DNA of 64,000 nt from an uncultured Alphaproteobacteria bacterium. GTDB taxonomy: Bacteria > Bacteroidota > Ignavibacteria > OLB7. The position numbers were made by a program, and so were the translations under genes. The notes under the pieces were generated by a model, which did no database searches, had not been told where the DNA came from, and saw nothing but the letters and a program-made list of their open reading frames with translations. This document shows, in pieces, positions 52,609-57,482 of the stretch. The stretch is taken from positions 192,212 through 256,211 of the forward strand of contig CAYVWR010000006.1 in the NCBI GenBank assembly GCA_964455525.1, written 5' to 3'. Position 1 is the stretch's first letter; the number at the start of each line of letters is the position of its first letter.

Positions 52609-53559
52609 CTAGAAGCGCCAGATCGCAGCAATCCCATTCACCGATGGAACGATCATCCACCCCGCCTCCGCCGGACTGGCATCGTGCAGATGCACCACAC
52701 CATAACCACAGACCGTTCCCACCACGGCACCAAAGATGATATCGCTTCCCCAATGCCTATCGGCATACAGACGGCTTAGCGCGGTGGCTCCGGCGAGCGT
52801 GTACAGCCCGACCGATGCCCAGGGATCGTCTATCTCCGCGGCAAGCGTGGAGCTTACAGCAAAGGCGATGGTCGAATGCCCGGACGGAAATGAATGATAG
52901 TCATCCTTTGTGGTAGGCCCCTCGAACGTATACGGGCCATCCTCCAACCCCGGACGATGACGGCCAAGGAGAACCTTGGTAAGCGTGGTGATGGCCGCGG
53001 CATATACTACCGATTGCACCACATGGCGTCCGGCACGCCGGATACCCGGCTCATCGAAGGCAAGGCCGCTCAGATAAAGGCCTGATGATATCGCCGCGGC
53101 CGGAATCCATGTGCCGTAGATATCGCCGATGCCACGGGCAACAGCGGGTATGGTGCCACCACGTCTGGCGAACAGCGGCCGGATGCCATCATCGGCAACA
53201 GCGGTCATCCCGGTCCCGATGAACGTCCAGCCGGCAACTCCCCATTGGCGAAGGGAAAACCGCGCAGGAGCGCTGAAGAACAGAACCGCATCGGCAGCGC
53301 TCTCCTCCACATCCCGCCAGAGCGTATCGGCGATGCTGGGAGATGACAGCGCCGGATGCCGAAGAGAATCGGCCAAAGAGGCGGCGGACAGATTCGCCGA
53401 TATCATCCCGAGAAAGATCAGACCCAACACGGTGGCGCCCGCCGCGTTAGATCGCTGCAAACAATTCGATCGATGTCCTGTATGCACGCAAACTCCACCA
53501 TCTGCTCGTGTGACGTGGCAATTATTTATCACGATTATATACTTGGAGAACCCGTCCAT
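52609..53559 (-). CDS. PAP2-family phosphatase (membrane)
   Basis: PAP2 motifs KVLLGRHRP ... PSGHS ... SRLYADRHWGSD. Start uncertain (M at 53559, or the internal MISANL). Confidence 0.75.
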   Translation of the reverse strand: MDGFSKYIIVINNCHVTRADGGVCVHTGHRSNCLQRSNAAGATVLGLIFLGMISANLSAASLADSLRHPALSSPSIADTLWRDVEESAADAVLFFSAPARFSLRQWGVAGWTFIGTGMTAVADDGIRPLFARRGGTIPAVARGIGDIYGTWIPAAAISSGLYLSGLAFDEPGIRRAGRHVVQSVVYAAAITTLTKVLLGRHRPGLEDGPYTFEGPTTKDDYHSFPSGHSTIAFAVSSTLAAEIDDPWASVGLYTLAGATALSRLYADRHWGSDIIFGAVVGTVCGYGVVHLHDASPAEAGWMIVPSVNGIAAIWRF

Positions 53560-53601
53560 TGCCGTTTTTCACCTAAAATAAGGTGAAAAACGGCAATGGA
53601 C
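53554..53601. repeat. perfect 21-bp inverted repeat GTCCATTGCCGTTTTTCACCT-AAAATA-AGGTGAAAAACGGCAATGGAC overlapping the transposase start codon
   Basis: Read directly. Right arm contains ATG 53596-53598 of the IS1595-like ORF. Lies at the GC-drop boundary. Confidence 0.85.
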
Positions 53602-54415
53602 GATCCCGGACTCAAGAATCTTTCCGACTTCGATAAGCAGTTCCCGGATGAGCAGGCATGCCGCGATTATCTGGAGAAATCTCGCTGGAAGGGCACATCA
53701 CCTGTCCTCATTGTTCGGCGGATAAGGTGCATCACTTCACCGATGAAAAGCGCTACAAGTGCGGGATGTGCCGGAAGCAATTCACGGTGAAGGTCGGGAC
53801 GATCTTTGAGCAATCCCCGCTGCCGTTGCAGAAATGGTTGCTCGCGATGTATGTCCTCACTGCACATAAGAAAGGCATCGCATCTACTCAACTCGCCAAA
53901 GATGTTGGCGTCACGCAAAAGACAGCGTGGTTCATGTTGGGACGGCTTCGCTGGGTGATGCACACCAAGTCTTTTGATAGACCGCTGAAGAACGTTGTGG
54001 AGGCGGATGAGACGTATGTAGGAGGCAAGCCACGGAAGAAGGAAGAGAAGCGCCAGCGAGAGCGGAGCAACGATCGTAAGGCACCCGCTGCTGGTGTAGT
54101 AGAGCGTAATGGCGAGCTTCGGATAATGCCGGTTCCAAACATCAAGGCGGCGACGCTGAGGAGCTTTCTAACGGCAAATGTAGATAGCACGGCGGTTCTC
54201 CTGAGGGACTCCTACAACTCCTATATTCCTGCCGGTAAGAGCTTTGCGGTACATGAGAGTGTGCACCATGCTCAAGGGGAATACGTTCGCTTTCGGACGG
54301 GCTGAAGGTGGATATGGGCTTTGATGAGTTTGTAGATCGGGTGGTTAGAGTGAAGCCAACTCAGCGTAAAGAAACGACGGCTCGAAGTAAGAATAGCGGC
54401 AGTAAAAACGCGTAA
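53596..54415 (+). pseudogene. IS1595-family (ISXO2-like) transposase, frameshifted and internally degraded
   Basis: Frame A (53596..) MDDPGLKNLSDFDKQFPDEQACRDYLEKSRWKG. Frame B (53658..54305) continues with the zinc-ribbon ITCPHCSADKVHHF...YKCGMCRKQFTVKVGTIFEQS...LAMYVL. After the stop at 54305 a third frame reads GLKVDMGFDEFVDRVVRV, resembling the family C-terminal YLDEF.FRFNRR. No intact DDE core. Confidence 0.65.
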
Positions 54416-54432
54416 CAGCATTTAAGGCTACA

Positions 54433-54954
54433 TTAAGATCTCCCCTTAGAACGTGTCTTTGCACTCTTCTTTTGTCCTGATGTCTGTGGTTTTTCCGATG
54501 CCTGTTGTATTGGTTTTGTTCCATGCATAAACAGTGTGGCTGGATCGGCAGGCGGGAGAATTAATCCTCGATACATCGTACCTGCCAAGCGCTCAAAGAG
54601 CATCCCACGCATTGTAGAATATGTAATACCAAGCAGCTCAATGACAAACACATTGGGCAATTGCAGTATATCATTCTTCCGAACTACAGGATCAAATGTC
54701 GAGACTTCAAAGGTGCATCGAGCCATCATCTGGAAGATCGGCTTAAGGGGATCTGTATTAAGAGCAGCAATTACTCTGCCTTCGATTGCAACTAAGCGAT
54801 CTATTTCGTTAATACGGAGACTCCAGCCAAATTGCATTGTGACATCTTCAGGATCAGGCTCTGCAATACTACTTTCAGTATGTAAGTAATTAGGGATATT
54901 AATAGAGTAGATTCTATACTGAATGGTTTGCACTTCAGTCTCAGACTTAGCCAT
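54433..54954 (-). CDS. hypothetical protein, third gene of the HigB/HigA-like cassette
   Basis: 173 aa. Start ATG overlaps the upstream stop (TAATGG). Lower GC than the surroundings. Basic/Ser-Lys-rich C-tail. No recognisable motif. Confidence 0.5.
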   Translation of the reverse strand: MAKSETEVQTIQYRIYSINIPNYLHTESSIAEPDPEDVTMQFGWSLRINEIDRLVAIEGRVIAALNTDPLKPIFQMMARCTFEVSTFDPVVRKNDILQLPNVFVIELLGITYSTMRGMLFERLAGTMYRGLILPPADPATLFMHGTKPIQQASEKPQTSGQKKSAKTRSKGRS

Positions 54955-55385
54955 TAGACTCGCACCTGCTTTCTTGTAGTTGATTTCGCATAGGAAGCGA
55001 CAACATTAAGTATAACGAACTGTAGGGTCTGCATCCCCTGAGAAGCTAAATACGTCTCTTCTGGTGAGGAAGACACAATTGGCACTGAGGCTGATTGTGG
55101 CACTATAACAGGAGTTTGTGAGCGAAACATAGGGGATTCAATCAGATTTTTCCCCGTTGCTAGCTCAAGACGTACAACAGTTTTTAGTGTCAGATTTTCG
55201 TCACCGGAAAGAATTTTACTAATCCTAGACTCAGTCATCCCAGTGATATTTGCTAGTTGTCTCTGAGTCATGCTCAAGGCAGACAGAACACTTGCTAAGT
55301 GAACGGCAATATCCCCTTGCAAGTCAATTAAACGCCCTGTAAGTAGATCAACCTTAGATGCTATTTCACGGATGATCGATTTCAC
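54954..55385 (-). CDS. XRE-family HTH protein (HigA-like antitoxin candidate)
   Basis: HTH MTQRQLANITGMTESRISKILSGDENLTLKTVVRLELATG. Probable GTG start at 55383-55385 overlapping the upstream stop. Extended C-terminal tail. Confidence 0.55.
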   Translation of the reverse strand: MKSIIREIASKVDLLTGRLIDLQGDIAVHLASVLSALSMTQRQLANITGMTESRISKILSGDENLTLKTVVRLELATGKNLIESPMFRSQTPVIVPQSASVPIVSSSPEETYLASQGMQTLQFVILNVVASYAKSTTRKQVRV

Positions 55386-55867
55386 AAGTCCTCCTCTAGT
55401 GGAAAATAGAGATTTCCTATAAGTTCCCCACAATTGCCAAACCAGACCTCATGATCCCTTATTCTTGCTTGTAGACACCGGTCCACATACATCATAGCTT
55501 TCATATGGTCATCCAGAATTTTGTCTTCTTTATTGGCTCGGACTTTCTTGATTGCACCTCCACCAAGAATCAATAAACTCTCCCCCCATCGACAACAATA
55601 CACTCTCAGCCTTCCACTCTGTTTACTGAGAGCCGCAACTGAATCTGAGGAACGCCCTTCAGGCCTAAAGAAGTTCGCCGTGAACCCCCACCTATCTAGC
55701 ATCCCATTCATTTGACGAATAAGGTGCTCAAACTTAGGCTCGCGCTGGATCTCAGGATTTTCAACAAACTTCTGGAACTCGCTCTTAGACTCCCCGTCTA
55801 TTCGTACACTGTAGAGGTTGCCCTTTGGGCCTTGATCCTCAAGCTCGATAAAGAATCCAAATTTCAC
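55382..55867 (-). CDS. Gp49/HigB-like toxin-family protein (COG4679-like) with N-terminal extension
   Basis: C-terminal half RLRVYCCRWGESLLILGGGAIKKVRANKEDKILDDHMKAMMY fits the Gp49-like/HigB consensus (R.lY.f.....i.LLhgF.KK.qktP..EI..A). First gene of a 3-gene minus-strand operon. Low GC. Confidence 0.5.
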   Translation of the reverse strand: MKFGFFIELEDQGPKGNLYSVRIDGESKSEFQKFVENPEIQREPKFEHLIRQMNGMLDRWGFTANFFRPEGRSSDSVAALSKQSGRLRVYCCRWGESLLILGGGAIKKVRANKEDKILDDHMKAMMYVDRCLQARIRDHEVWFGNCGELIGNLYFPLEEDL

Positions 55868-56106
55868 TTTTAAGATAAGTTATTGATTTAAAGTATCCAA
55901 GGAATATCAGTGAGGTAGGCTGATCTCGGGTATGATAGTATACTAGCGCTTAAGATAGAACACTGTAAGGAAACGGCCTCTACCTTAGTAGAGCCACATT
56001 GAAGGTAAATAGTGGGGGTATGTCAAGGAACATTAGGATCTCCTAGTGAGTTTATGAATGGCCCCGCCTGTCACCAGCGGGGGCCACCATAACATCGAAT
56101 TAGCGG

Positions 56107-56316
56107 CTAGTTAGGGGAAACACCTAACAGGCCATCTCCCGATCTTACGCTAAAGAAGTACGCCCTCATCGGCAGGAAGAAGTGAGCATGCCCAGCCAGA
56201 ACCGCAACAGGCTTACCGTCACGCATGATGATGCATGGATCTTCCGACATGCCCACACGCTCTACAAGATCGGGAAGTGTCTCTTGTGCCTCGCTAAGAT
56301 CAAATCCTCCTGATTG
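56107..56316 (-). pseudogene. Phd/YefM-family antitoxin remnant (no start codon, diverged C-terminus)
   Basis: Minus-strand frame between TGA (56302-56304) and TAG (56107-56109) reads WISEQSGGFDLSEAQETLPDLVERVGMSEDPCIIMRDGKPVAVLAGHAHFFLPM.... The segment SEAQETL.DLVERV...EDPCIIMRDGKPVAVL matches the Phd/YefM N-terminal core (SEAR.NLS.L.D.V..GEPV.ITR.GKPVAVL). No ATG/GTG/TTG lies upstream of the homology, and the region after AVL is non-homologous. Confidence 0.35.
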
Positions 56317-56820: not shown

Positions 56821-57378
56821 TTACTTTTTATGCTGCCAGCAATACCCGGAGCTATCGGCCGTACCACGAGAGCACTGGCGCCCGGTTTTGGTCACAGCCT
56901 GGCATTGTGCTCCCTTTCCCTTCTTCGCACGCTCCTTGGTTCCCCTGGAAGATACGGCCACAAGAGAATCGGGCATGGGGAGATCACCATCTCCGCCGCT
57001 CGCACTCCTTTGCAATGGCAATGCCGCTTTTTCCCCCTGCGATCTCTGGTTTTGTTTTGCCCGTGCCTTCCTGGCTCTCTTTTCTCCTCCCGCCGGCCGA
57101 TCCGGCTGCACATTCGACCAGTAGAGATACCCCTCCCGTTCTCCGAACCTGATACGATAATACCGCCCGCTTGCCGCCAGAGCCTGGATGCTATCGCCGA
57201 GCCGGAGTTCACCGACGATTGCCGACATATGATCGGCGGAATCATAGACCGGAGCGCCATCATAGATCACATACAGGATCTTCGGATAGGAGGCCGATGA
57301 TTGGGAATAAAGGCCGGGGTGGCACAAGGCGGCCCACAGAGCGCCAATGATGGCAACAAGGAGCAGATGGTGTTTCAT
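56821..57378 (-). CDS. secreted protein: SH3-like domain, basic linker, C-terminal Cys3-His zinc-ribbon-like tail
   Basis: Signal peptide MKHHLLLVAIIGALWAALCHPGLYSQ. SH3b-like segment (GDSIQALAASGRYYRIRFGEREGYLYWSNV). K/R-rich linker. C-terminal CQAVTKTGRQCSRGTADSSGYCWQHKK. Confidence 0.55.
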   Translation of the reverse strand: MKHHLLLVAIIGALWAALCHPGLYSQSSASYPKILYVIYDGAPVYDSADHMSAIVGELRLGDSIQALAASGRYYRIRFGEREGYLYWSNVQPDRPAGGEKRARKARAKQNQRSQGEKAALPLQRSASGGDGDLPMPDSLVAVSSRGTKERAKKGKGAQCQAVTKTGRQCSRGTADSSGYCWQHKK

Positions 57379-57482
57379 GATAGTATGTGGAGATCGGTGC
57401 ACATCACGAGTCCAGAAACTGCGAGGAATATAGTGCTGGCAGTTCCACGCGTCAACCCATGATATCCCCCCTGTTCTCCAGG

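Follow-up and report, generated by a model that had tools for sequence, protein, structure and literature searches.

What is the low-GC block of three overlapping genes that stands out in a 64,000-nucleotide stretch of contig CAYVWR010000006.1 (assembly GCA_964455525.1, positions 192,212 to 256,211; hereafter the window, in whose coordinates positions are given): a HigBA toxin–antitoxin (TA) pair with parts added, or a system of another kind? An original prediction described a Gp49/HigB-like protein with an N-terminal extension (gene 1), a helix–turn–helix (HTH) protein of the XRE type with a C-terminal extension (gene 2) and a novel third protein (gene 3), which might together form a tripartite TA or phage-defence module beside an insertion sequence (IS) remnant. 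We conclude that the cassette is, with good probability, a HigBAC-type toxin–antitoxin–chaperone (TAC) module, acquired by horizontal transfer and built from divergent toxin and chaperone families, and that it probably serves phage defence or addiction. The tripartite module survives in this answer through conserved synteny, matches to the candidate defence system PDC-M64 and a RelE/HigB-like fold of gene 1; a plain HigB with an add-on, and membership of PF05973, do not.

The cassette consists of three intact minus-strand open reading frames (ORFs) spanning 54433–55867 (Table 1). They overlap, in line with the predicted translational coupling: GTGA joins the stop of gene 1 to the start of gene 2, TAATG joins genes 2 and 3 in the same way, and independent gene calls on identical metagenome contigs likewise give proteins of 161, 143 and 173 residues. 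A 159-residue ORF for gene 2, taken from a mechanical ORF list and beginning at an upstream TTG, was rejected as too long; the GTG at 55385, seven bases 3′ of GAGGAGG, is the likelier start. GC content falls below that of the flanks, as had also been noted, at 43.8% against 56.8% for the window (0.438 versus 0.568; standard deviation 3.1%, or 0.031, among segments of the same size); this is the lowest GC in the window, and every 1435-bp segment with a GC fraction below 0.48 lies at the cassette. Because low GC is combined with a truncated IS1595 transposase on the 3′ side, the IS remnant of the prediction, and a Phd/YefM antitoxin remnant on the 5′ side, horizontal acquisition is well supported. 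Three contigs aligned across gene 1 and its upstream flank are identical base for base, and contigs of several related sequencing runs encode a gene 3 protein identical to that of the window.

A PADLOC search of the locus, one of the checks proposed at the outset, shows that the three adjacent genes match all component hidden Markov models (HMMs) of PDC-M64: gene 1 matches PDLC04756 over its full length (6.4e-33), gene 2 PDLC04760 (2.8e-14) and gene 3 PDLC04763 (1.7e-12), and the assignment consists of these component matches. Homologous cassettes match the same models. The PDC systems are 145 untested candidates nominated by guilt-by-embedding, their genes being embedded in BREX, DISARM and type I restriction–modification loci (bioRxiv 10.1101/2024.01.29.577857). 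A literature search found no paper mentioning PDC-M64, and our reading of this system, catalogued without a function, is that it is probably a TAC.

The three-gene arrangement recurs widely. Across related loci from two plasmids (of Bacteroides thetaiotaomicron and Hymenobacter swuensis), 14 genomes, 22 metagenome contigs and two viral contigs, a gene 2 homologue directly follows the gene 1 homologue in all 39 cassettes, and a gene 3 homologue comes next in 33 of the 38 that are informative, one more contig ending too early. The third component added to the TA pair is therefore a recurrent one, its homologues do follow TA-like pairs elsewhere, and gene 3, predicted to be novel, is no orphan. 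Cassettes with gene 3 come from Bacteroidota, Chlorobium, Balneolaceae, Ignavibacteriota, one Firmicute, one bacterium of the candidate phyla radiation, the two plasmids and a viral contig. Five cassettes lack it: four two-gene forms, which make up one clade, and a cassette in a Balneolaceae genome (L013) whose third gene encodes a bona fide SecB (PF02556, 29.2 bits against a gathering score of 26; 9.7e-7). This protein lies outside the gene 3 family, follows an antitoxin with a 26-residue tail, and matches the PADLOC CmdTAC chaperone model PD-T4-9_C at 2.4e-8 and the sister PD-T4-9_C model PDLC04072, which E. coli SecB also matches, at 3.4e-7. The most frequent Pfam family among the neighbours of related cassettes is phage integrase, and strong PADLOC matches beside them include type I and type IV restriction enzymes, PD-Lambda-1, PDC-S11, IetS, Hhe and PbeA/AriA.

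Two of these neighbourhoods have features of their own. On the B. thetaiotaomicron plasmid NZ_CP103284.1 (L004, three-gene cassette at 1151–2551), a PD-Lambda-1 protein (PADLOC 2.9e-169; DUF4041/T5orf172) lies 1.4 kb upstream of the cassette and adjoins a phage antirepressor gene. At L009, the gene 3 position of a two-gene cassette is taken, after a 290-bp gap, by an ORF (L009:5617–6090) similar to the N-terminal domain of ArdC, an anti-restriction factor (PF08401, 3e-5); this suggests a conjugative-element context.

Gene 3 is probably homologous to SecB, judging from profile alignments, and is a candidate for a very divergent chaperone. A profile of 27 gene 3 sequences aligned with a profile of 10 housekeeping SecBs in hhalign over 134 collinear columns, that is, over the full length (E 3.2e-4, score 30.1). 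By comparison, 100 column-shuffled SecB alignments scored 11.0 ± 1.9 (maximum 16.0), which places the observed score about 10 standard deviations higher; the reversed SecB alignment scored 12.9 and unrelated family pairs 9.6–12.9. A 15-sequence gene 3 profile also aligned with the single E. coli SecB sequence over 133 collinear columns (E 0.011), and against the gene 3 profile the SecBs of E. coli and H. influenzae rank above all 187 same-size decoy ORFs. R116, G-T and LP-x-IN-P...L of gene 3 stand in register with Y-A-R...G-F-P...L-x-P-I-N-F...L-Y of SecB. The conserved core of the family covers residues ~4–150, with R116 and P134 invariant and G117 nearly so, and the window copy has the family-invariant residues. 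The basic tail noted in the prediction is present but not conserved: homologues stop near the position aligned with residue 150. Published TAC chaperones share only 14–19% identity with one another (PMC5105189), and a phmmer search of the PDB with E. coli SecB did not retrieve the M. tuberculosis TAC chaperone, so divergence of this order is normal for such proteins. A word-indexed homologue search with gene 3 returned only gene 3 itself, and a search with a concatenated gene 1 and gene 3 profile retrieved only relatives of gene 1. One homologue, in a Sphingobacteriales cassette whose antitoxin tail is 97 residues long (L011:7015–8016), has 333 residues, with C-terminal TPR repeats (TPR_1, 2.5e-18) fused to the SecB-like core; it may be a sensor-fused variant of the chaperone.

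Gene 2 contains the XRE-type HTH that was predicted (HTH_3, PF01381; 6.7e-8, 32.9 bits against a cut-off of 23). It scores below the cut-off of the HigA equivalog TIGR02607 (2.9e-7, 30.2 bits against 47.7), and a phmmer search of the PDB found no relative. The predicted C-terminal extension of about 60 residues is also present: in an alignment of 40 homologues, conservation ends near residue 86 and 57 non-conserved residues follow, a tail that two-gene homologues do not have. Among 34 cassettes with gene 3, the window included, all 34 antitoxins carry a tail of 35–117 residues whose sequence is not conserved; in the four two-gene cassettes the tail is 0 residues long, the antitoxins of 87–95 residues ending where the core ends. 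The two viral contigs obey the same rule. Tails average 11% aromatic residues. Published TAC antitoxins carry a chaperone-addiction (ChAD) extension that varies in both length and sequence (PMC5105189; bioRxiv 10.1101/2024.02.24.581848), and by analogy the tail that enlarges gene 2, probably a disordered one, looks like such an element. Both forms occur side by side in one Bacteroidales genome (L008:4504–7171), where a three-gene cassette with a long antitoxin is followed in tandem by a two-gene cassette with an antitoxin of 95 residues.

Gene 1 is a putative toxin of the RelE/HigB (BECR) fold that falls outside all Pfam RelE/ParE families. Its AlphaFold2 model, made with a 66-sequence alignment, forms one compact domain (predicted local distance difference test (pLDDT) 91.3, predicted TM-score 0.87). 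In a Foldseek search of the PDB with this model, 12 of the 14 best matches are RelE/ParE-superfamily toxins, led by S. pneumoniae HigB (6AF4; E 5.6e-3, probability 1.0, TM-score 0.53) and including 6AF3, M. tuberculosis HigB1, E. coli RelE, Shigella HigB, V. cholerae HigB2 and several ParE proteins; a viral fold library gave unnamed weak matches only. The predicted match to Gp49/HigB therefore stands for the fold and fails for the sequence. Gene 1 has no Pfam match at E ≤ 1, PF05973 included, and none in NCBIfam or PHROGs; only 1 of 81 family members touches PF05973 (E 0.009), and the family HMMER profile has no match in the PDB. In hhalign, gene 1 aligned with a mini-profile of N15 gp49, S. 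pneumoniae HigB and M. tuberculosis HigB1 no better than with column shuffles. Membership of the Gp49 family was accordingly rejected, both the whole-length and the C-terminal-half comparisons lying at shuffle level and the best alignment pairing the wrong halves.

When 1.84 billion cluster representatives were scanned exhaustively with HMMER, 438 proved to be relatives of gene 1 at E ≤ 1e-3, so that the family comprises at least 438 clusters at 50% identity. Because nearly all of these have 150–170 residues and align end to end, gene 1 belongs to a distinct family of ~160 residues and is not a 100-residue HigB with an N-terminal addition. The ~70-residue N-terminal extension of the prediction consequently disappears: the whole 160 residues form one conserved family and one predicted domain. 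The family is marked by the motif LRLYCxR-x6-LILGnGGiKxTRTYQEDPxL. Across 81 family sequences R88 and K107 do not vary, and the window copy has both; their comparison with K95 of M. tuberculosis HigB1 makes them candidates for a catalytic role, a comparison made in a by-eye alignment without statistical support. Several other leads on gene 1 were followed and dropped. An internal duplication is unsupported, a phmmer match to engineered TPR proteins in the PDB is a summed-repeat artefact, and a match to a 6474-residue protein (P0008) is a repeat artefact in which a 27-residue match recurs in 14 copies of less than 3 bits each. A word-indexed homologue search returned only gene 1 itself, and a scan of species-representative genomes for LR[LVM]YCCRWG gave no match. 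In three related loci (L038:697–1202, L039:440–945 and L057:6001–6500) a broken gene 1 homologue, in two ORFs, stands beside intact genes 2 and 3, which could reflect inactivation of the toxin or sequencing error.

How would such a cassette work? In HigBAC-type TACs, the ChAD destabilizes the antitoxin unless the chaperone holds it, and phage structural proteins compete for the chaperone and thereby release the toxin (PMC5105189, PMC6377645, bioRxiv 10.1101/2024.02.24.581848); titration by phage structural proteins has been shown for E. coli HigBAC and for CmdTAC. By analogy, we infer toxicity, RNase activity, chaperone dependence and a phage trigger for the present cassette. The gene 1 toxin would be a ribosome-dependent mRNA endonuclease, and the gene 2 antitoxin would bind it and probably repress its own operon. 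The variable, partly hydrophobic and aromatic tail of gene 2 would make the antitoxin unstable or prone to aggregation, and the gene 3 chaperone would hold this tail and so keep the antitoxin functional. Titration of the chaperone, by unfolded phage structural proteins or by general proteotoxic stress, would lead to loss of the antitoxin, and the freed toxin would then halt translation, resulting in abortive infection or growth arrest.

Comparison with established systems places the cassette closest to what this scheme describes while marking its peculiarities. Like the HigBAC TACs of M. tuberculosis (Rv1955–Rv1956–Rv1957) and E. coli NT1F31, it has the order toxin, HTH antitoxin, third gene, here a putative chaperone. 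It shares with them a RelE/HigB-fold toxin, M. tuberculosis HigB1, the archetypal TAC toxin, being among its best structural matches; an XRE/HigA-like antitoxin with a variable, partly aromatic C-terminal extension; a third protein of about 150–170 residues with profile-level similarity to SecB; and a cassette family associated with mobile elements and defence loci. In contrast to HigBAC, its toxin family has about 160 rather than about 100–125 residues and lies outside PF05973 and all other Pfam toxin families, its gene 3 escapes the Pfam SecB and PADLOC CmdC models, and its family is found chiefly in Bacteroidota and in the FCB group at large, in which annotated SecB is rare (9/3813; PMC4361572). 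It also differs from CmdTAC (PD-T4-9), whose toxin CmdT is an mRNA ADP-ribosyltransferase and not a RelE-fold protein, and whose CmdC models gene 3 does not match. With the two-gene HigBA or gp49–HTH pairs (phage N15 gp49–gp48, V. cholerae HigBA2) the cassette has in common that the toxin comes first, has a RelE fold and is paired with an XRE HTH antitoxin. Unlike these canonical pairs, it adds a third gene and an antitoxin tail, the two-gene form of its own family occurring in one clade, and sequence comparison of its toxin family with N15 gp49, S. pneumoniae HigB or M. tuberculosis HigB1 shows no significant similarity. These comparisons suggest a divergent form of a known kind of TAC, unusual in having a toxin outside the Pfam RelE/ParE families and a chaperone outside the SecB models.

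More broadly, TAC systems are known from both stress responses and phage defence, and they are an experimentally established route of phage sensing, in which phage structural proteins hijack the chaperone. TACs have so far come mainly from Proteobacteria and Actinobacteria, their toxins and SecB chaperones being recognized by domain models. Taken alone, the locus in the window is an ordinary, horizontally acquired islet of the TA type; beyond the window, PDC-M64 probably represents a cryptic family of TACs. If this is confirmed, PDC-M64 gains a mechanism, TAC biology reaches a major gut and environmental phylum, the toxin family including gut Bacteroides plasmids, and searches based on SecB under-count TACs.

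The observations that weigh against this conclusion touch all three genes and the locus itself. PDC-M64 is a candidate only, and its models carry no functional description. The four two-gene cassettes, drawn from genome and metagenome loci, form a single clade whose members are 59–74% identical, so the correlation between antitoxin tail and gene 3 rests on few independent events, essentially one. For gene 3, every curated SecB model and every HMMER search of the PDB failed: gene 3 has no Pfam match (SecB included, E ≤ 1) and none in NCBIfam or PHROGs, the best true family member reaches only E 0.14 against Pfam SecB, and the family HMMER profile finds nothing in the PDB. The hhalign probability for gene 3 and SecB stays below 50% (~39%, computed without secondary-structure scoring), and the single-sequence AlphaFold model is unusable (pLDDT 35). 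It is accordingly conceivable, though we consider it unlikely, that the cassette is a tripartite TA or defence module in which gene 3 is not of the SecB type and is instead an unrelated phage sensor, second regulator or adaptor that occupies the same operon slot and is swapped for SecB in some lineages; the C-terminal TPR fusion in L011 is more typical of sensors or adaptors. Such a protein would leave unaccounted for the full-length collinear alignment with SecB, ~10 standard deviations above shuffles and with the motif R...G-T...LP-x-IN-P/F in register, and in core size (135–160 residues) and position gene 3 agrees with TAC chaperones, L013 has a true SecB in its stead and it co-occurs strictly with the antitoxin tail. 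A related idea, which we regard as rather improbable, is that gene 3 is an independently evolved, non-SecB holdase or sensor that has converged on SecB and become interchangeable with it, as L013 suggests. Were this true, PDC-M64 would be a second, non-SecB class of chaperone-addicted TA defence across Bacteroidota and relatives, and the variants fused to TPR repeats would suggest that the third component senses phage directly.

The toxin raises a different doubt. The link between gene 1 and HigB is by fold only, with modest TM-scores (0.42–0.54) and non-significant Gp49 sequence profiles, and the toxicity of gene 1 is a prediction. As the sequence of gene 1 fits no curated toxin family, integrases are the commonest neighbours of related cassettes and homologues occur on plasmids and viral contigs, the genes could form a non-toxic regulatory module of a mobile element, in which a gp49-like protein, a Cro/CI-type repressor and an accessory protein would serve element maintenance or lysogeny. 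We hold this to be very unlikely, since the best structural neighbours of gene 1 are almost exclusively active RelE, HigB and ParE toxins, the basic residues R88 and K107 are strictly conserved in 81 sequences, and the toxin-first order with gene overlap is typical of higBA; the frameshifted gene 1 copies beside intact genes 2 and 3 show the decay pattern expected of a counter-selected toxin, and defence genes are common among the neighbours. Finally, the window toxin has K113 where its family has Q, E or N, and the locus lies outside any defence island with decayed mobile-element genes on its borders, so the window copy could be inactive, whatever the family does elsewhere. On this account it would be a relic brought in by an IS1595-associated event, which would fit the truncated transposase and the Phd/YefM fragment on its flanks and the failure of a sigma-70 scan to find a consensus promoter. 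We consider this, too, very unlikely: none of the three ORFs is interrupted, their junctions overlap and a strong ribosome-binding site is present, every family-invariant residue is retained, the three contigs agree at every base of gene 1 and the flank upstream of it, several related runs contain an identical gene 3 protein, and the promoter scan was limited to a sigma-70 consensus that Bacteroidota-type organisms do not use. An intact, divergent TAC module remains the reading that we prefer.

Table 1. Features of the three-gene cassette and its flanks (window coordinates).
Feature	Position	Strand	Remarks
Gene 1 (putative toxin)	55382..55867	-	161 aa, GTG start
Gene 2 (putative antitoxin)	54954..55385	-	143 aa, GTG start, GAGGAGG ribosome-binding site
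Gene 3 (putative divergent SecB-like chaperone)	54433..54954	-	173 aa, ATG start
HTH core of gene 2 (about aa 37–81)	55143..55277	-	Pfam HTH_3, residues 53–97 of the 159-aa ORF
Gene 2 C-terminal tail (aa 87–143), candidate ChAD	54957..55127	-	FRSQTPVIVPQSASVPIVSSSPEETYLASQGMQTLQFVILNVVASYAKSTTRKQVRV; alignment of 40 homologues
Gene 3 basic C-terminal tail (aa 151–173)	54436..54504	-	particular to the window copy; gaps in other sequences
Upstream non-coding region	55868..56106	-	239 bp, GC 0.435, presumed promoter/operator (operator role inferred)
Truncated IS1595-family transposase	53658..54305	+	PF12762 2.8e-15 and PF12760 zinc ribbon
Phd/YefM-type antitoxin gene remnant	56107..56298	-	PF02604 5.7e-5, model positions 6–39 of 74, below cut-off

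The region upstream of gene 1 contains a perfect 10-bp palindrome, TAGTATACTA, at 55936–55945 and the inverted repeat CTCTAC-N4-GTAGAG at 55978–55993. Scans of the locus for sigma-70 consensus promoters, a consensus foreign to organisms of the Bacteroidota type, and for terminators found none above chance. Directly upstream of the cassette, the Phd/YefM remnant retains only the N-terminal part of the protein, without a start codon and with an aberrant C-terminus; arrival of the low-GC cassette may have disrupted an older TA locus here. A GC-rich hairpin follows the remnant at 56052–56092. At the 3′ end of the cassette, the IS1595 transposase lacks the part of its DDE domain beyond model position 109 of 153. 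One sister sample (L053) has the transposase frameshifted and called in two pieces (179 and 64 residues) instead of as one of 215 residues, and this pseudogene is therefore polymorphic between samples.

A perfect 22-nt inverted repeat with a 6-nt loop lies at 53553–53602, between a PAP2 gene and the IS1595 transposase, and probably either terminates transcription in both directions or forms part of an IS end; Rfam matches to microRNA precursors at 53537–53618 are produced by this perfect hairpin and are irrelevant. The three genes and the upstream region are bracketed by 14-nt direct repeats, ACATTAAGATCTCC (54430–54443) and ACATTAGGATCTCC (56030–56043), identical at 13 of 14 positions. Because chance alone would produce roughly one pair of this kind in a 3.4-kb region, we do not claim them as attachment sites. 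Farther upstream, a 193-residue protein encoded on the minus strand at 56821–57402, unrelated to the cassette, has a very basic middle part and two features that score just below Pfam cut-offs, namely a bacterial SH3 domain and, at the C-terminus, a DUF5763 cysteine motif.

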